A stretch of 43,688 nt of DNA from Chiloscyllium plagiosum (taxonomy: Eukaryota), in NCBI RefSeq assembly GCF_004010195.1, contig NC_057718.1, forward strand, positions 46,954,091-46,997,778, in the 5' to 3' direction. The translations under genes and the position numbers were made by a program. Every line of letters starts with the position of its first letter. Within the stretch, counting starts at the first letter, position 1. A model generated the notes under the pieces. It was not told the origin of the DNA, ran no database searches, and saw only the letters and a program-made list of their open reading frames with translations. Below are positions 1 to 43,688 of the stretch, one piece after another.

Positions 1-525
1 GGGTGCAGAGGATGCAATAGATGCAATATCTATTCCATCCTCTCCCCCCGATGTGTCCTCCTCTATATTGGGGAGACAGGCCGGCTACTTGCGGAGCGTT
101 TCAGAGAACACCTCTGGGACACCCGGACCAACCAACCCAACCACCCTGTAGCTCAACATTTCAATTCCCCCTCCGACTCCACCAAGGATATGCAGGTCTT
201 TGGATTCCTCCATCGTCAGACCACAGCGAAACGATGGTTGGAGGAAGAACGCCTCATCTTCTGGCTAGGAACCCTCCAACCACAAGGGATGAACTCGGAT
301 TTCACCAGTTTCCTCATTTTCCCTCCCCCCAGCCTGTCTCAGTCAAATCCATCAAATTCAGCACCGCCTTCCTAACCTGCAATCTTCTTCCTGACCTCTT
401 CGCACCCACCCCAGTCTGACCTATCACCCTCACCTTGACCTCTTTCCACCTATCACATTTCCGATGCCCCTCCCCCAAGTCCCTCCTCCCTACCTTTTAT
501 CTTAGCCTGCTGGAACTTTCTCCTC
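1..525 (+). mobile_element. Penelope-like element 3' part (GIY-YIG endonuclease plus pyrimidine-rich tail), with a fold-back junction at ~27
   Basis: Frame 1 reads IYSILSPRCVLLYIGETGRLLAERFREH...HFNSPS...LEEERLIFWLGTLQPQGMNSDF. Positions 1-27 are roughly the reverse complement of the sequence starting at 28. Confidence 0.85.
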
Positions 526-3176: not shown

Positions 3177-4178
3177 TGTTGGAGGTCAGTCATCTCAACT
3201 TCAGGACATCTCTGCATGAGTTCCTCAGGTTAGTGTCCTGGCCCCAAACATCTTCAGCTGCTTGAATGACCTTCCCTTCATCATAAGGTCAGAAACAAAG
3301 GTGTTTGTTGATGAATGTACAATGTTCGGTATGATTTGCGACTCATCTGATACCGAAGCAATCCATGCGCACATCCATTAAGAACTGGACAATATCCATG
3401 GTAGAGACAAGTGGCAAGTAACATTCGCGCCACACAAGTACCAGGCAATAACCATTTTCACAATCTAACTACCACCCTTTGACATTCAATGGTGTTACTC
3501 ACTGAATCCCCTATCAACATCCTGGGGGTTACCATTGATCAGAAACTCAACTGGAACCGCCATATAAATACAGTAGGTAGAAGAGCAAGTCAGAAGCTAG
3601 GAATATTGCGGTGAGTAACCCATCACCTGACTCCCTGAAGCCCATCTACCATCTACAAGGCACAAGTCAGGAGTGTGATGTAATTCTTCCCACTTGTCTG
3701 GATGAGTGCAGCTCCACAATACTCAAGAAGCTTGACACCATTCAGGACAAATCAGTCACTTGACTGTCACCACATCCACGAACATGCACTCCCTCCACCA
3801 TAAATGCTCATAGCAGCAGTGTGTATTTACAAGATGCACTGCAAAAATTCACCAAAGATCCTTAGACAGCACCTTCCAAACCTACAATCACTTCCTTCTA
3901 GGACAACTGCAGCAGATAGATGGAAACATCCCATCATCTGCATGTTCCCTTCTAAGCCTCTCACCATCCACACTTGGAAAAATATTACCATTCCTTCATT
4001 TTTGCTGGGTCAAAATCCTAGAATTCCCTTCCCAGTGGTATTTTGGATCTACTTATACCACGTAAACTGCAGCAGTTCAAGAAGGCAGCTCACCATCATC
4101 TTGTCAAGGGCTACTGGGGATGGGCAATAAATGCTAGCCAGCGAGCAATGCCTATGTTCCACAAGTGAATAAAAAAAT
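3177..4178 (+). mobile_element. Old CR1/L2-clade LINE, 3' part to tail
   Basis: Motifs VPQVSVLAPNIFSC, FVDECTM (a decayed FADD), KWQVTFAPHK and TIYKAQVRSVM. It ends in GGGCAATAAATGCT...GTGAATAAAAAAA. Confidence 0.8.
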
Positions 4179-4179
4179 T

Positions 4180-4422
4180 GCTTCAACATCACCATATTGC
4201 CATGCATGATTAGCTTGAACTTATCCAAGAATCTTGTTATAATGCCTGTAGAATTAGCTTACAAATATTTTCTCTACGACAGATGGTAAGCTAACTGGTC
4301 TATAGTTTCCTGCTTTCGACCTCCTTCCCTTTTGAATAAAAGGGTTCTATTAGCTATTTCCAATCTAAAGGAACTGTTCCTGAATCTAATGGGACTTGGA
4401 AAACTAAAAACATCAACTATTT
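4180..4422 (-). mobile_element. CR1 RT fragment, inverted relative to the adjacent CR1 3' end
   Basis: The minus strand reads LDSGTVPLDWKIAN and GNYRPVSL-like motifs. Confidence 0.7.
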
Positions 4423-5031
4423 CTGGAAAAAGAAGCAGATAACCTAAATGGTGAGCAATTGCAGAACTGTGAGAGGCCGTGAGATGGGTATTCTAGTGCA
4501 CGGATGATTTAGGATTAGTGTGCAGGTATGGCAAGTAATCCAGAAATCTAAAAGAATGTTATGATTTATTGTGAAGGAAATTGATTGCAAGACTAGGAAG
4601 TTACGCTTCAGTTATACAGGGCATTGGAGAGAACACATCTGGGAGAACTGTGTGCAGTAATGGTCAACATATTTACGTATGGATGCTTGTGCATTTGAAG
4701 TAGTTCAGAAGATTCACTAAATTAATATCTGAATGAGCAGATTGTCTTATGAGTAAAGGCTAGACTGTGAGACCTGTATCCTCCGGAGTTTAGAAGAGAC
4801 AGAGTTGATATAATTGGACCACTTTCAGATCATAAGGAAACTTGGACTGATGGATGTGGAAAGGATGTTCCTCTTGTGGGCAATCAAGAATGAGAGGTCA
4901 TAGTTTTAGGTAAGGGATAATGGGGGAGATAGACAGATTTTTAATTAGTCATGGTAAAAAGGTTTTGGAGAGGGGCAGGAAAATAGTTCAGGCTGAGATG
5001 ATGTCAGCATGATTGCATTAAATAGTACAGT
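4423..5031 (+). mobile_element. CR1 3' end, interrupted by the composite Penelope insertion (tail resumes at 6794-6860)
   Basis: Degenerate LQLYRAL...HL, LSYE and FRRD motifs. The CR1 tail reads continuously once 5032-6793 and one TSD copy are removed. Confidence 0.8.
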
Positions 5032-5054
5032 TCGCCGAGCTGGAAGTTTTTGTT

Positions 5055-5094
5055 GCAAACGTTTCGTCCCCTGTCTAGGTGACATCCTCAGTGC
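5055..5094 (-). ncRNA. Minimal hammerhead ribozyme motif (left pLTR copy)
   Basis: Exact reverse complement of 6685-6724. Confidence 0.78.
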
Positions 5095-6142
5095 TTGGGA
5101 GCCTCCTGTGAAGCGCTTCTGTGGTGTTTCCTCCGGCATTTATAGTGGCCTGTCCCTGCCGCTTCCGTTATTCAGTAGAGCAGTTAGTGAAGTTAATTGA
5201 CTGAATGGGGTTAAAATGAAATTTGAAACTTAATGCATTTGTCTTTTTTCCACTATTATGTTATGTATCACCAATCTCATTGGTTTAATTTTAACTGAAG
5301 ACATTTAAATTTCCTAAAGTGATCAGTGTTAAACTCCACAGTAACAGAGGGCTTGCTGTAAGTCAGATTTACTTAGAAATTCTAACTTAGTTATTACATT
5401 AGAGGTTCATTTTCAGGTCTACACATCTCTGTAACAATGTACTTATCGATTATTCATTAGAATATATCCATAAGTTATGAACTGAATAAAGTTTTGATAT
5501 TGTTATGATAATTCTAAGTGTGGACTATCAAATATACTGCTGTCATCAAATATATCTGGGACCCGTAATGGACTAAAATTTTTTTTTGAAAGGAAGAATC
5601 ATGGACCTAAAATGGCTACAGTTGTCAGCTGACTACTGATTAAGGCAAGCTTAGTGAGATCCATGTGGCATCAACAAAACTGTCTGCACTGAAATTGCCA
5701 TCTCTTTCTAAAACTATCAATACCAGGCAACTGAATCAGAGTCATTTCACCTACATTTCGTATTTTAATTTGTACTTTCATTGGACAATGAAAGGTTCGA
5801 CTGCCGGTTAGCCTGCTTATAAAGGCATTGGGACCAGATTCAGGAATGTATACTAAACTGTGTTTCTATTTGCTACAGAGCAAATAGAAATAACATGGAT
5901 TAGTAACATCAGGGACTGAAAGGTTTTCTGCATACTGTTTATATCATCATCTTGAAAATAGCACTGAATGGATAAGCAAATTGAGGAAGCAGCCTTCATT
6001 GAACACTCAATATCTACAAACTTCACCACTATTGATGATACCAATCAATAATCAAACAAATATAGTCTCAAAGTTTGGGTGAAGATTTGTAGCTCGGGTG
6101 CTCGTTGTTGTGGTTCTGTTCGCCGAGCTGTAAGTTTTTGTT

Positions 6143-6182
6143 GCAAACGTTTCGTCCCCTGTCTAGGTGACTTCCTCAGTGC
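6143..6182 (-). ncRNA. Minimal hammerhead ribozyme motif (middle pLTR copy)
   Basis: Same as 6685-6724 except for A instead of T after CTGAGGA. Confidence 0.75.
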
Positions 6183-6684
6183 TTGGGAGCCTCCTGTGAA
6201 GTGCTTCTGTGGTGTTTCCTCCGGCATTTATAGTGGCCTGTCCCTGCCGCTTCCTGTTGTCAGTTTCAGCTGTTCACTGTAGTGGTTGGTATATTGGGTC
6301 CAGGTCTATGTGTTTGTTGATGGGGTTTGTGGATGAGTGCCTGCTATATAGGACAAACAGGAAGACAGCTAACGATCCGCATCCACGAACATCAACTAGC
6401 CACGAAGCGACCAGCTATCCCTAGTAGCCACACACGCAGACAACAGCAACATGAATTTGACTGGGACAACACTACCATTATAGGGCAAGCGAAACAAAGA
6501 ACAGCCAGGGAATTCCTAGAAGCATGGCACTCATCCACAAACTCCACCAACAAACACATAGACCTGGACCCAATATACCGGCCACAACAGCGGACAGCTG
6601 AAACTGACAACTGGAAGCGGCAGGGACAGGCCACTATAAATGCCGGAGGAAACACCACAGAAGCGCTTCACAGGAGGCTCCCAA

Positions 6685-6724
6685 GCACTGAGGATGTCAC
6701 CTAGACAGGGGACGAAACGTTTGC
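6685..6724 (+). ncRNA. Minimal type-I hammerhead ribozyme motif in the PLE pLTR
   Basis: GCA-CTGAGGA-T-GTCACC-TAGACA-GGGGAC-GAAAC-GTT-TGC. Stem I is GCA/TGC, the core is CUGANGA plus GAAA, stem II is GUC/GAC, and the predicted cleavage triplet is GUU. Minimal hammerheads are an established feature of PLE pLTRs. Confidence 0.8.
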
Positions 6725-6929
6725 AACAAAAACTTCCAGCTCGGCGAACAGAACCACAGCAACGAGCACCCGAGCTACAAATCCTCTCACAAACATTAAA
6801 TAGTACAGTAGGCGTGAGGGGCTGAATTGCCTATTTCTGCTCCTCATTCTTCTATTTCCATATATACATTTGAATTAGATGTTTGGAAATTACAAAATTC
6901 AATTAGGGTTAGCATTAAAAGTATGTGAA

Positions 6930-8210
6930 TCAGTCAGAATGTAACAAGTAGAGTGTCATTTTGAAAAGTAGGAAGCTTTGTACCTTAATGCACAAAGTAT
7001 GTGGAATAAGGTAGATGAACTGACGGCACAAATCCAGTTAAGTGGATATGATCTTATCGCTATTATAGAGACATGGTTAATGGAGATCAAAACTGGGAAC
7101 TGAACATTCATGGATATTTTGACCTTTCGGAAAGACAGGACGGAAGGTAAAGGTATTGAGGTAACACTATTAGAAAGAAATTAAATGAAGACATCTGCAA
7201 GAGATGATTTAGGCTCAGGTGATACAGAGTCGAATAGTGTGGCGCTGGAAAAGCACAGCCATTCAGGCAGCATCCGAAGAGCAGAAGAGTCGACACTTCA
7301 GGCATAAGCCTTGCATCAGGAATGCAGATGATAATGAGTCCATTTAGGTGAAGGTGAATAATAAGGTAAAGAAGACATTGGTAAGAGTAACCAGTAACCC
7401 CAAGAGTAACCCCAAACAGTAACCATGCTGTAGAAAAGACCATTAATTAATAAATAATAGGAGCATGTTTAAAAAAAGCAATAATTAATGGGTGATTTTA
7501 ATCTTCTTGCTGATCGGGTCAATTAGATTTGAAAGGGTAATTACAACAAAAATTCATAGAGTGCATTAAGGATAATTTCCTAAAGGAAAATGTCATGGAA
7601 CCAACCACAGAGCAGGCTACCTTGGATCAGGTCATGGAATGGCAGGTTTAATAAATAACTATAGAATAAAAGATCCTCTAGGAGGTAGTGATAATAGCAT
7701 GATGGAATTTGCTATTCAATTTGAGACTGAGAAACAAGTCAGAAACAACTGTATTTAACTTTTGGGAATAACAATGAAATGAGGATAGAGTTAGCCAAAG
7801 TAAACTGGACAGATAGATTAACAGAAAAATCAGTAAGCAAGCAGTGGAATACATTTAAGGAAGTAATTCATGACTCAGCAAAAATATATCCCAGTAAGGA
7901 GGATTAAATCAACATGGATAATCAATGAAGTTAGGAAGAGTATTAAGTCGAATGGAAAAGCATATAAGGAGGCAAAAGCCAGTGATAGCACCAAAGACTG
8001 GGATTAATTCAGAATCCAGCAAAGGACGACTAAGACAGAGAAAATATATTACTGGGACAAACTAGGAAGAAACTTAAAAACTGACCTTAACAGCTTCTTT
8101 AAATATATAAAAAAGTCAGTGAACCTAGGCTCCTTAAACAATTAATATGGGGAGATAGTTATCAGGACCAAGGAAATGACAGTAGCGTTAAACAGATATT
8201 TTTCATCAAG
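6930..8210 (+). mobile_element. Degenerate CR1 ORF2 5' part (APE endonuclease and linker), with a PLE pLTR fragment inside at ~7228-7325
   Basis: Motifs LYLNAQSMWNKVDEL...YDLIAIIETWL, MGDFNL, EPTTEQATLD and PLGGSDN, with multiple stops and frameshifts. Confidence 0.8.
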
Positions 8211-8329: not shown

Positions 8330-8780
8330 TGCATAGTTCTTATGCGCAAGACCTGGACAACATTCAGTCATGGGCTGATAAGTGGCAAGTAACATTTGCA
8401 CCACACAAGTTCATGGCAATAGCCATCTACAACGTAAAAAAGGTTAACAATCCCCCTTGACATTCAATAGCATTACTATGGCTAATTTTCACATTTCTGG
8501 GGGTTACCACTGACCAGAAGCTCAATTTGACCAACCAAATGAATACTGTTGCTGCAAGAGCAGATCAGATGTTGGGAACTCTACAGCGAGTAAGTCACCT
8601 TGTGACTCCCCAAAGCCTGTCCACCATCTACAAGGCATAAGTCAGGAGTGTGATGGAATACTCTTCTCTTGTCTGGATGAGTGCAGCTCCAAGAATACTC
8701 AAGAAGCTTGACACCATCAAGGACAAAGTAGTCTGCTTCATTTGTACCCATCTGGTATGTCAAACATTCATTCCTTACAG
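8330..8780 (+). mobile_element. Old CR1/L2-clade LINE 3' fragment (same family as 3177-4178)
   Basis: Motifs WADKWQVTFAPHK and MEYSSLVWMSAAPRILKKLDTIKDK. Confidence 0.75.
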
Positions 8781-9974: not shown

Positions 9975-10685
9975 TTTTATAAGGCCATTAAAAGCAGGAG
10001 CAGAAGTAGACCATTCAACAAGATCATGGCGAGAATGACGAGAACGAGGGTAGGTCCGATCAAGGACAGTAGTGGGAGACTGTGTATTGAGTCGGGAGAG
10101 GTCTTGAATGAGAGGGACCGTATTGTTGAAGAGGAGAGTGTGAAACGGACTGGTAAGCTAGAAGAGATACTTGTTAGGAAGGAAGATGTGTTGGACATTT
10201 TGAACAACTTGAGGATAGACAAGTCCCCGGGCCTGACGGGATATATCCTAGGATTATGTGGGAAGCAAGAGAGGAAATTGCAGAACAGTTGGCAGTGATC
10301 TTTTTGTCTTCACTGTCAACGGGGGTGGTACCAGAGGACTGGAGAGTGGCAAATGTTGTGCCCCTGTTCAAAAAAGGGAATAGGGATAACCCCGGGAATT
10401 ACAGGCCAGTTAGTCTTACTTCGGTGGTAGGCAAAGTAATGGAAAGGGTACTGAGAGATAGGATTTATGAGTATCTGGAAAGACACTGCTTGATTAAGGA
10501 CAGCCAGCACGGATTTGTGAAGGGGAGGTCTTGCCTTACAAGTCTTATTGAATTCATCGAGGAGGTGACCAAGCATGTGGAAGAGGGTAGAGCAGTGGAT
10601 GTAGTGTACATGGAATTTAGTAAGGCATTTGATAAGGTTCCCCATGGTAGGCTGATGCGGAAAGTCAGGAGGCATGGGAGAGAGG
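9975..10685 (+). mobile_element. Young CR1 LINE ORF2 (RT N-terminal half), truncated by the gap
   Basis: Motifs DKSPG, VPEDWRVANVVPLFKKGNRDNPGNYRPVSLTSVVGK, SQHGFVKGRSCLTSLIEF and FSKAFDKVPH. Confidence 0.93.
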
Positions 10686-11033
10686 NNNNNNNNNNNNNNN
10701 NNNNNNNNNNNNNNNNNNNNNNNNNNNNNNNNNNNNNNNNNNNNNNNNNNNNNNNNNNNNNNNNNNNNNNNNNNNNNNNNNNNNNNNNNNNNNNNNNNNN
10801 NNNNNNNNNNNNNNNNNNNNNNNNNNNNNNNNNNNNNNNNNNNNNNNNNNNNNNNNNNNNNNNNNNNNNNNNNNNNNNNNNNNNNNNNNNNNNNNNNNNN
10901 NNNNNNNNNNNNNNNNNNNNNNNNNNNNNNNNNNNNNNNNNNNNNNNNNNNNNNNNNNNNNNNNNNNNNNNNNNNNNNNNNNNNNNNNNNNNNNNNNNNN
11001 NNNNNNNNNNNNNNNNNNNNNNNNNNNNNNNNN
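10686..11033. other. Scaffold gap (348 N)
   Basis: A run of N flanked on both sides by plus-strand CR1 ORF2 sequence. Confidence 0.99.
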
Positions 11034-11535
11034 AGTTAGGAAGGCAAATGCAATGTTAAACATTCATTTCAAGAGCACTAGAATACAAAAGCAGAATGTA
11101 TTGCTGAGACTGTAGAAGGCTCCGGTCAGACCACATTTGGAATATTTAAGCAGTTTTGGGTCCCACATCTAAGGAAGGACGTGCTGGCATTGAACAGGCC
11201 TGGATACAGCGGACGTGGAGAAGATGCAGGAGAGACTAGAACCAGAAGGTACAACGTCAGAGTGAAGAGACAATCCTTTAGAACTGAGATGAGAAAAATT
11301 CTTTCAGCCCACGGGTAGTTAATCTGTGAAACTCATTCCCGCAGATGGCAGTAGAGGTTAAGTCATTGAGTGCATTTAAGACAGAGATAGATGGATACTT
11401 CTTAACTAAGGGATCAAAATTTATGGAAGGCGGCAGGAGAACAGGGTTGAGAAACATATCTGCCATGATTGAATGATGAAGCAGACTCTGAGCCAAATAA
11501 CCTAATTATGCTCTTATATCTTCTGATTTTATGAT
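11034..11535 (+). mobile_element. Older CR1 3' end on the right side of the gap
   Basis: Motifs KANAMLTFISRALEYKS and RPHLEY, with deletions and frameshifts. The CR1 tail reads CCATGATTGAATG...CCTAATTATGCTCTTATATCTT. Confidence 0.85.
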
Positions 11536-17075: not shown

Positions 17076-17836
17076 ACTGGTTCATGCCAAATTAGGTACA
17101 TATAAGCAGACAGATTTCTATTAGGGTTGATACAATAAGTGTTTTTAAAAATTCCATACCTTCCACTGAAATGCTAAACACAACTGGCTGAAGAGTTGTT
17201 TCATATCAGAACGTTTTCACTATTGCCCACTAATTGACGTCAGTGAGTAATAGTCTTCAGTGACTGATGTTAGCAGACAATAGAACAGACACTGCTGCCC
17301 ACTGTCACAAAGCACAGGCAAAAAGGGTTACAAAGTTCCCCATTTTGAAAAATAAATTTAAAGTCTAGAGATGTAATAAAAACACCGAGTTTGGGCTACT
17401 AAAACAAGTTTAACTCATTTTCGTTAAAGTGATCAAGTGTGCAATAACTTGTTCAAGTTCTGGTTTAAGGTCCACATTTTACCCCTAGAGCTCTCCAGTG
17501 GAGTAAAGATGTATACAACTACACACCAATTTGAGAGAAATATCCAGATTCCTAGCCAACATTCTTCCTTTCACAAATTATAAAGTGCAACTAATTACTT
17601 GTTGCCTGTTACTAGCATAGAGGATTTGCCAAACCAGACGGGTCAAATATAATTATAGCTGTTACAATGCAGCAAGGCCTATTGAAAAGTAAATACAGAT
17701 AAGAGCAATCAATAAGGTTCATGAATTGTTAAGCTTTGAAATAAAGTGTGGATGTGATGCTTCAGTTATACAGCACCTTAGAATGCATCTACAATACCAG
17801 ATTTAAGTTTACGCACTAGGCACCAGGAAATGCACA

Positions 17837-18005
17837 GAAACAAAAACAGAAGTTGCTGGAAAAGCTCAGAACTGGAGCTCTGATGCAGGGTCACTGTACC
17901 CATAATGTTAACTTTGATTTCTCTGCACAGATGCTGCCAGACCTGCTGAGCTTTTCCAACAACTTCTATTTTTATTTCTGATTTGCAGTTCTTTCAGATT
18001 TTATT
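17837..18005. mobile_element. Older fold-back PLE-derived element
   Basis: Inverted arms GAAGTTGCTGGAAAAGCTCAG / CTGAGCTTTTCCAACAACTTC, a decayed hammerhead-like CTGATGC-AGGGTCACTGTACCC, and a degenerate TSD (caccaggaaatgcaca / tactaggaaatataca). Confidence 0.7.
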
Positions 18006-24424: not shown

Positions 24425-24775
24425 GTTGATAAAATGTGGAGCTGGAAACGCACAGCAGGTCAGGCAGCATTGGAGCAGGAACATAGACGTTTCGGGTTGG
24501 TACTTTTTATCAGGATGTGGGGTGGGGCGCTGAGAAATAAATAGAGGGAGGGTGTGGGGCAGTAATTGGTGGATGCAGGTAGGGGATTATTGTGATTGGT
24601 CAGTGGGAAGGGTGGAGCGGATAGATGAGGAAGATGGACAGGTTAGGTCCAGTCAAGGAGGTGGGGAAGAGAGGGAAGGCTGGACATGGTATGAGGTTAG
24701 GGGTGGGGAGATTTTGAAGCTGGTGAATTTTATGTTAAGACCATTAAGCTGTAAGCTCTCAAGGCGGAATATATT
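24425..24775 (-). mobile_element. Penelope-like element 3' fragment
   Basis: The minus strand reads IFRLESLQLNGLNIKFTSF (GIY-YIG C-terminus), followed by a pLTR with CTGATAA...CCCGAAACGTC. Confidence 0.75.
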
Positions 24776-37548: not shown

Positions 37549-37758
37549 AGCTCTGTAGCATGTCTAAAATGGTAAATGGATGTCACATGGCTCGCATGTG
37601 AGGCAATCCAGAACTCAGTAGAGTATTTAGACTTGGCTCTGAGTTCAGATATCAGCTCTTTGAAAATGTAAAAAAAATCTGCCTGGTTGTGAATGCGAGA
37701 GGACAAATATATTGTTGTAACATTTTTTCAGCAGTTTGTTGACACAGTTATAAGTGCT

Positions 37759-37943
37759 GAAAATGTGTTGCTGGAACAGCACAGCAGGTCAGGCAGCATC
37801 CAAGGAACAGGAGAATCGACGTTTCGGGTATAAGCCTTTCTTCAGGAATCTCCTGTTCCTTGGATGCTGCCTGACCTGCTGCACTTTTCCAGCAACACAT
37901 TTTCAGCTCTGATCTCCAGCATCTGCAGTCCTCACTTTCTCCT
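37759..37943. mobile_element. Short fold-back PLE-derived element with 16-bp TSD
   Basis: The TSD CACAGTTATAAGTGCT lies at 37743-37758 and 37944-37959, around long inverted arms. A minus-strand hammerhead core CTGAAGA...GAAACGTC lies at 37813-37850. Confidence 0.88.
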
Positions 37944-38718
37944 CACAGTTATAAGTGCTATCAACATAGTATTAATAATGCTTGACTGCTTTTCACAATC
38001 CTCATTACAATGACAATTTGTATATTTACAGCTTCACTGACACTAAAAGAAGTGTTTAAAGGATTAGCTGTTTTTGATGTAGGTTTATACATACAAATTT
38101 TTGGTTTTTTCATAACAAACTAGAAAGTTAGTGGGAATTAAATGCATTGGACAGTCTTCCATCGATGCAAGTGTTTTTTTATGTAGTGAAGTAAGTACTC
38201 CATATTTAGAACTCTATTTGATTTCATCTCAGCATGGTGGATACCTAAGGTGGCATAAGGGCTATTAAGAGCCGGGGGATGGGTTGGCTTGATTTGGCAC
38301 CACATTTGTTAGGAAACATAAGGAGCCATGGAGGTGGATGAGAGGTGTGTGTTTTTACTAAGCTGGCATCAAGGCTATAAGGGTCCATAAGTGTTGCTGG
38401 AGTATTAGGGTGAGCATGATTTAGAACTGTATTTTTTGAGTGGCTGTAAGGGGCTCTGGAAATGGATAAGAAACATGGTTTGTGACTTTGGTTTAACTCT
38501 CAATGAGATCTTGAGTGACCATTTGGTATCTGGGATTAATTATGTAACCATGCAAAAGCACCTACTAACTGAAGCCACACTGGACTTCAAACAGGCACTA
38601 CAAGTGGCTTTATCATTGGAAAATGCAGCAAGTTTCAGGGTAAACCAATTCAGGACACCCTAGTCAGCCCAAATGATCTTGGCGAACACCAGGATAAATC
38701 CTGCACAGGGAGACTTAG

Positions 38719-38905
38719 TCTAGATTAGAGTGGTGCTGGAAAAGCACAGCAGGTTAGACAGCATCCGAGGAATTCCTGATGAAGGACTTTTGCCCGAAAC
38801 ATTGATTTTCCTACTCCTCGGATGCTGCCTGACCTGCTGTGCTTTTCCAGCACCACTCTAATCTAGACTCTGATCTCCAGCATCTGCAGTCCTCACTTTT
38901 GCCCG
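38719..38905. mobile_element. Fold-back PLE-derived element nested in the Gypsy gag
   Basis: Inverted arms AGTCTAGATTAGAGTGGTGCTGGAAAAGCACAGCAGG and its reverse complement. The TSD is GGGAGACTTAG / GGGGGACTTAG (38708-38718 and 38906-38916). CTGATGA...GAAAC lies at 38776-38800. Confidence 0.85.
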
Positions 38906-43194: not shown

Positions 43195-43688
43195 AATAGA
43201 CAATAGACAATAGGTGCAGAAGTAGGCCATTCTGCCCTTCGAGCCTGCACCACCATTCAATATGATCATGGCTGATCATCCTTAATCAATATCCTGTTCC
43301 TGCCTTATCTCCATAACCCTTGATTCCACAATCCTTGAGAACTCTATCCAACTCTTTCTTAAATGAATCCAGAGACTGGGCCTCCACTGCCCTCTGGGGC
43401 AGAGCATTCCACACAGCCACCTCTCTCTTGGTGAAGAAGTTTCTCCTCATCTCTGTCCTAAATGGTCTACCCCATATTTTTTAAGCTGTGTCCTCTGGCT
43501 TGGCACTCACCCATCAGCGGAAACATGTTTCCTGCCTCCAGAGTGTCCAATCCTTTAATAATCTTATATGTCTCAATCATATCCCCTCTCAGTCTTCTAA
43601 ACTCAAGGGTATACAAGCCCAGTCGCTCCAGTCTTTCAGTGTAAGGTAAGCCCGCCATTCCAGGAATTGACCTCGTGAACCTACGCTG
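43195..43688 (-). mobile_element. Young CR1 LINE 3' end (runs off the window)
   Basis: MAGLPYTERLERLGLYTLEFRRLRGDMIETYKIIKGLD, with the tandem tail AATAGAC-AATAGAC-AATAGG. Confidence 0.92.

Follow-up and report, generated by a model that had tools for sequence, protein, structure and literature searches.

A recent Penelope-type insertion carrying captured single-copy host DNA between pLTRs in a shark genome

How does a piece of ordinary host DNA come to be framed by the pLTRs of a Penelope element? The question is raised by a block at 5016-6809 of the 43.7-kb stretch of shark DNA that was analysed here (the window). Published accounts still call it undefined how Penelope elements form their inverted and tandem ends and how they come to capture host DNA (PMC8557442, PMC11167929). 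Framed host DNA has been described from the rotifer Adineta vaga, where it lies between Penelope pLTRs within a TSD and where an empty allele is present (Arkhipova, Yushenova, Rodriguez 2013, PMC3846280); the same account includes non-coding captures and captured spacers of 0.9-1.5 kb (PMC3846280). In the literature that we searched, with most subscription journals outside its coverage, we found no account of host DNA captured by a PLE in a shark or any other vertebrate. A preliminary description of the shark block proposed that an older pLTR and its flanking genomic DNA had been mobilised together in one recent event, possibly via ribozyme-delimited RNA.

The block is bracketed by a perfect 16-bp duplication, which was confirmed: the left copy of the TSD (5016-5031, plus strand, 75% AT) is exactly equal to the right copy (6794-6809, plus strand), the match cannot be extended, and both strands of the window hold only these two copies. 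By chance, an exact 16-mer is expected at ~9e-10 per place. The final 2 nt of the left copy also match the adjoining pLTR piece (arm A, see below). The target was the tail of an old LINE, of which the left part of the 3' remnant occupies 4702-5015 (plus) and the continuation 6810-6856 (plus). When the block is excised in silico, the flanks align across the join with a copy of the LINE tail at ~43202-43603 (minus), 43 of 60 columns matching in the join block and the join itself being gap-free, and a blastn match to a second copy at 11384-11529 likewise spans the empty-site join (62%, E 2e-5). Removal of the block does therefore restore a continuous LINE tail, as had been claimed; from a motif, we presume that LINE to be CR1. 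Copies of another LINE 3' end are located at 2416-2577, 3380-3936 and 8348-8733, one pair being inverted and 93% alike.

Further evidence on the site comes from public read runs. The stretch is present in 18 of 24 listed runs (6 studies, three organisms), the shares of 0.00 in runs X22-X24 and of 0.18 in X14 having no evidential value. Four runs were compared over the region 4300-6117, namely X1 (possibly the source of the window and not independent of it), X15 (same species, other study), X5 (organism B) and X6 (organism C), with the coordinates of minus-strand records calibrated on two contigs that share an end at 4897. In both other-species runs, contigs of the left flank leave the window exactly past the TSD, after 5031, and continue for 286 nt (X5) and 222 nt (X6). 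From where these single contigs depart, not from the letters beyond, we read a putative empty site in organisms B and C, which agrees with the continuity of the LINE tail at the excised join. The filled allele is taken from the window assembly, because among the 8 pieces listed per run no X1 or X15 piece crosses the junction between arm A and the host DNA or the span 4897-5031. The assembly contains a 348-nt N gap at 10686-11033, which is entered by an RT-bearing LINE piece (10178-11033) and which could hide sequence, including a nearby donor.

The right part of the block, arm C (6345-6793, plus), is a 5'-truncated Penelope/Poseidon-type copy that consists of a GIY-YIG C-terminus, a pLTR and a 44-nt tail. 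Its translation corresponds to the C-terminal part of the GIY-YIG domain and is 71-82% identical to five shark proteins (among 9 matches), some of which also carry an RT. The GIY-YIG identity given in the preliminary description holds through these relatives, which yield RVT_1 at E 3e-6 (below the gathering score), a weak GIY-YIG match at E 0.03 and a CxxC before YIG; Pfam on the window fragment itself, which retains only the nuclease part from YIG onward, returned nothing except an unrelated weak match. The relatives display the single ORF of an EN+ Penelope-like element, with an RT followed by a C-terminal GIY-YIG domain and a Cys pair between GIY and YIG, and the locus contributes direct and inverted pLTRs, an optional tail and the TSD. 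No Cys-rich linker between RT and nuclease is visible in the relatives, which would fit Penelope/Poseidon rather than Neptune. Other traces of such elements are scattered through the window. What remains of a more distantly related GIY-YIG domain is found at 28-243 (plus) and shares 30% identity with the family protein. A fold-back element of a second family lies at 1482-1732, with arms ~83% alike and an 11-bp direct repeat at 1482 and 1722, and further fold-back pieces of that family were found at 7213-7334, 17827-17991, 24431-24515, 37721-37942 and 38709-38903; a hammerhead-like core occurs in the last of these, at 38776.

All three pLTR copies of the block (A, B and C) contain a motif of the minimal hammerhead type (min-HHR), defined by the conserved core, an extra base after position 9, the G10.1-C11.1 pair, a palindromic 15.2-16.2 and an NUH triplet (features from PMC4209133). 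With a helix I of only 3 bp, these are motif matches and predicted ribozymes. Rfam gave no hammerhead, and no match at E up to 1, and the fold of the monomer is not favoured (z 0.02-0.93), so that the hammerheads of the preliminary description stand as motifs and gain nothing from Rfam. The predicted cut sites at 5058, 6146 and 6721 (core starts 5091, 6179 and 6688) coincide with none of the boundaries at 5030, 5166/5167, 6070, 6344/6345 and 6793; each copy spans its own, and the proposed ribozyme-delimited RNA is not supported for that reason.

Arm A (5030-5166, minus) is a tail-less pLTR piece, and the reported identity of the outer pLTRs was reproduced over its entire length (137/137 against 6613-6749 of arm C). 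Were A and C as far apart as B and C, such identity would have a chance of 0.002. B and C each fold into a stem-loop with an AC-rich loop (z -3.2 and -1.9), and the end of A falls in this loop of the 3' stem-loop, 44 nt short of the tailed end of C. B and C are both tailed. By analogy with the one-sided tail that is the published pattern for inverted pairs of PLEs (PMC8557442), A and C have the appearance of an ordinary pair of arms from a single insertion. Among loose contig ends, the tailed end is evident at 6068 (124-194 contigs per run with unlike flanks); at 5030 the ends are a mixture of tailed and untailed copies, and a cluster of tail-less ends is weakly shown. Arm C is already decayed, presumably with two small compensating deletions. 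At position 5124, the three copies have the same base, the other letter accounting for between about one half and four fifths of the depth across the four runs; from this common base, A, B and C may belong to one subfamily.

Between A and B lies the captured host DNA (5167-6070, no strand assigned), ~0.9 kb long, with 33% GC and a largest ORF of <=64 aa. It had been described as AT-rich non-repeat DNA, and its composition and depth bear this out, donor contigs refining its limits to the coordinates given here. Its depth is mostly 5-14, like that of the unique flank, in all four runs, that of the pLTR being ~1e6 (contig depth is a rough measure), and it is therefore neither part of the element nor amplified cargo; a non-autonomous PLE family amplified with a fixed cargo was rejected on the same grounds. 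The cargo is accordingly no standard part of the element consensus, and it is absent from this site in the two relatives. No significant second copy was found elsewhere in the window, and neither a poly(A) signal near 5167 nor a poly(A) tract was found in the cargo. Exact-motif scans for the cargo start in metagenome contigs and for the pLTR motif in viral and metagenome contigs gave no match, and neither did a comparison of the cargo with phage records, collections that are not expected to contain shark DNA.

A donor was partly traced. In all four runs the match of a contig starts exactly at 5167 and is preceded by other sequence (1,517, 62, 49 and 8 nt); had this been arm A, it would have aligned there. 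The X1 contig (2,444 nt) shows 0 differences over the 927 nt of 5167-6093, which places an upper bound near 0.3%, and its 1,517 nt to the left are not pLTR; the X15 contig, from another sample and another study, shows 2 differences over the same 927 nt and has 62 loose nt on its left. These few differences indicate that the capture from the donor was recent. In organism C, a contig of 3,067 nt follows the host DNA to 6070, with 32 substitutions, and then continues for 2,151 nt without pLTR, and in organism B a contig likewise follows it to 6070 and then runs for 52 nt without pLTR. The host DNA is ~96-97% conserved in these two related species, where it stands without an adjoining pLTR and not beside this site. 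The native source of the cargo is thus seen with a non-pLTR left flank in four of four runs (8-1,517 nt) and with a native right flank in both other species. Taken together, the contigs indicate that the host DNA is an old single-copy sequence from elsewhere, that copy B arrived beside it later, in the lineage of this species, and that the block in the window is younger still. Relative to the flank, the X1 donor contig reaches a depth of 0.90, 1.19 being expected for one extra copy and 1.38 for two, and gives no sign of duplication at a depth of ~5; in the other three runs the ratio scatters from 0.59 to 1.05. In X5, the orthologue of the captured DNA in organism B is split at 5658-5661, where one contig continues for 272 nt, probably because of another insertion in organism B.

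Copy B (6070-6344, minus) is an older, tailed pLTR with a GIY-YIG end and a stop codon within its reading frame. It differs from both A and C at 6131, 6172 and 6202, the three sites named in the preliminary description. Over the whole overlap with C there are 16 differences in 272 positions (9 transitions, 3 at CpG), somewhat too many for an identical birth after the species split (P 0.005-0.04); without the tail end, the 12 differences in 258 positions are compatible with a joint insertion after the split (P 0.06-0.21). By our own assignment, ~9 changes are private to B and 4 to C (P 0.27). The donor contigs of X1 and X15 enter the tail of B as far as 6093, i.e. over 24 nt of B, where they cover four positions at which B differs from C, and there is no such entry in X5 or X6. 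Copy B came from the donor together with the host DNA, their adjacency being seen for the first 24 nt of B, and it landed beside the host DNA within the lineage of the window's species. This supports the proposal of a joint, recent mobilisation of an older pLTR and the DNA that flanks it, and the predicted donor locus, with host DNA abutting the tail of the middle pLTR, appears in both same-species runs (one possibly the source of the window); their contigs end at 6093, short of the three named variants and of the B/C junction. An origin of B as a fold-back of C on itself in this event was rejected on the 16 differences in 272 positions, and an in-register recombination of A or C with B was rejected since neither joint is in register.

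Our preferred reading, to which we assign a probability of roughly 0.6, is that both target strands primed the outer arms and that a template switch copied donor DNA and the older pLTR between them. The element nuclease would have nicked both strands of the AT-rich site, 16 nt apart to judge from the TSD, and both 3' ends would have primed reverse transcription on the RNA of one decayed family member that was mobilised in trans. The bottom strand would have primed from the tailed end, giving arm C, and arm A would stem from priming of the top strand at the tail-less site within the AC-rich loop; by analogy, the outcome would be the usual inverted pair with a one-sided tail (PMC11167929, PMC8557442). 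The PLE protein of an anole is reported to nick and extend both target strands and to initiate at two sites within the RNA, by which the optional tail is defined, ribozyme cleavage not being needed, and uncut RNA is reported as the main PLE substrate in vitro (PMC11167929). Before the arms were joined, one new strand would have switched to the donor locus, where the host DNA lies just downstream of copy B, or to its read-through RNA, and would have copied 1,178 nt; finally, the ends would have been sealed at either junction of the filler, where the sequences match briefly and imperfectly. On the minus strand, the 1,178-nt piece consists of the end of B and the 0.9 kb downstream of it, which is the content of a read-through RNA. 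Its orientation would fit a B-sense read-through RNA copied from arm A, and DNA-templated synthesis would fit equally; the hammerheads would have been carried along uncut.

The junctions were compared with what such a switch should leave behind. At the joint of A and the host DNA, the likeness to the arm's next sequence is matched or beaten by 6 of 892 positions, or by 20 of 883 with slack (0.7-2%), and exact microhomology amounts to 0-1 nt. At the joint of B and C, it is matched or beaten by 14 of 439 antisense positions in a conservative test (1-3%); a first test of this joint (0.0002) was partly circular, as its first bases may derive from B (six of six shark relatives have His, not Cys, there). 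Both joints are thus more like the next sequence of the neighbouring arm than most positions are, as expected from imperfect annealing and template switching. The copy, with its partly traced donor, suggests that the pLTR frame around captured DNA need not pre-exist and can be built during insertion.

The main rival to this template-switch reading is a 5' transduction of an existing composite, in which host DNA, B and C stood together at the donor beforehand; a transcript of the plus strand across them would have been reverse-transcribed from the tail of C back to 5167, and a second priming on that RNA would have produced arm A, so that only the joint of A and the host DNA would be new. This would explain directly why A equals C, with a single new junction; C was already decayed, the element's own sequence would naturally fold back at the joint of B and C, and the divergence of B and C and the split of their private changes are compatible with co-insertion. 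However, it requires a donor pair with tails at both ends, though the tail is often one-sided in published pairs (PMC8557442), its RNA would presumably fold as a 272-bp, 94% hairpin over the start signals, and the differences between B and C are somewhat many for an identical birth after the split. We consider it unlikely, yet a serious competitor. Far less credible is a two-step history, in which the A/C inverted pair was inserted first and a later break at its centre was patched by host repair copying the donor (a templated insertion), the element enzyme having no role in the capture. The filler does lie where the arms meet, and the short imperfect matches at both joints resemble end-joining repair, but both steps would have to be very recent (A equals C at 137/137 positions, and the filler matches its donor at 0/927 differences), and the filler contains a pLTR of the same sense as A.

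Two further explanations are more improbable still. One holds that a unit of pLTR, host DNA and pLTR (B to A) existed beforehand at the donor or an intermediate locus and was freed either in the form of hammerhead-released RNA or as a retrozyme-like circle. A and B do form direct repeats at a distance of 1,088 nt, the minimal hammerhead core being intact in both (as a motif), and two direct copies plus one inverted copy recall the Adineta NRPS case (PMC3846280). The reading is nonetheless largely refuted by the donor contigs of X1 and X15, whose DNA to the left of 5167 is not pLTR, and by single-copy depth, and the framed donor unit implied by the preliminary description is likewise not supported. 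Moreover, no boundary lies at a predicted cut site, a circle would yield identical repeats, yet A differs from B to either side of the cut, and uncut RNA as the main in vitro substrate also speaks against it (PMC11167929). The other explanation, a chimera of the assembly or host DNA that was moved instead of copied, might draw on the absence of filled-allele junctions among the listed contig pieces and on the X1 donor contig depth, which is not raised. Against this, no overlap between repeats could have led an assembler to join A to 5167, the TSD is exact and the ends are typical of the element; low depth and the pruning of contigs could explain the missing junction. We regard it as very improbable.

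As regards known systems, the block resembles the captures of Adineta vaga most closely: non-element DNA lies between two direct pLTRs with an adjacent inverted pLTR, the whole unit inside one TSD, and the minus-strand order of inverted pLTR, direct pLTR, host DNA and direct pLTR is the layout described for the Penelope-moved NRPS gene (PMC3846280). The host here is a vertebrate and the cargo is non-coding, unlike that gene; the donor is partly traced and shows only one direct pLTR beside the host DNA. Since the other direct pLTR (A) is identical to the inverted arm, it seems to have been made during the event. With canonical EN+ PLE insertions, as they are described (Craig et al. 2021, PMC8557442; Frangieh et al. 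2024, PMC11167929), the block shares the 5' truncation, an inverted copy, a one-sided tail and an AT-rich target, and, on our reading, the nicking and extension of both strands, a start in an AC-rich stem-loop and dispensable ribozyme cutting. It departs from them in the 1.18-kb foreign filler between the arms and in a tail of 44 nt, compared with the 30-40 nt described (PMC8557442, PMC11167929).

Published work on L1 describes templated insertions as well as twin priming combined with template switching (10.1101/2024.08.27.596794, PMC11702581, PMC13174262). The twin-primed chimeras of these accounts likewise combine two opposed cDNAs from both target ends with a foreign third piece between them and a normal TSD, whereas the enzyme is different here and there is no poly(A). 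In the same accounts, templated insertions in tumours are typically <250 bp and come from within 15 bp of the site; the donor here lies outside the 43.7-kb window. As in L1 3' transduction (summarised in PMC6431247), DNA downstream of the element's 3' end was duplicated with part of the element, but the flank lacks a poly(A) signal near 5167 and a poly(A) tract and ends on a second pLTR piece, and an L1-type 3' transduction was rejected on this account. The minimal type I core in each pLTR is like the minimal hammerheads of metazoan PLEs and non-LTR retrozymes (PMC4209133, 10.64898/2026.07.22.740005). Unlike the retrozymes of those accounts, the locus has no tandem array of like units and its boundaries ignore the cut sites; a ribozyme-delimited or non-LTR retrozyme unit was rejected accordingly.

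Seven coding exons of FLVCR1 were located at 34553-11775 (minus), 84-97% identical to a shark homologue and covering residues 1-434 of 514; the last 80 residues were not found in the window. Assuming that the remaining exons lie to the left of position 1, the insertion is probably situated in an intron of this gene, and A and B lie in its sense. It is a very recent, single event, probably intronic, with a non-coding cargo and no sign of function or spread. The suggestion that PLEs shuffle host DNA in shark genomes is borne out by this one event, as a single, non-coding case.

With its identical arms and a cargo that matches a donor allele without a difference, the copy is young enough that the donor sequence would make the order of events legible, and what it adds to the known rotifer capture is a partly traced donor that suggests a frame built during insertion. 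As a tentative extension, which we think doubtful but somewhat less so than the strongest rival above, one pLTR stub may suffice to mobilise the host DNA downstream of it: a Penelope particle holding more than one pLTR-bearing RNA would switch from the family RNA to the read-through RNA of any old stub and so build the frame of pLTR, cargo and pLTR anew. The finding would gain weight only if such units prove common genome-wide. If single-stub mobility is true, kilobases of DNA would be duplicated on a running basis from the very many stubs in shark genomes, with no dependence on poly(A), and the origin of the framed host genes of rotifers would also be explained.
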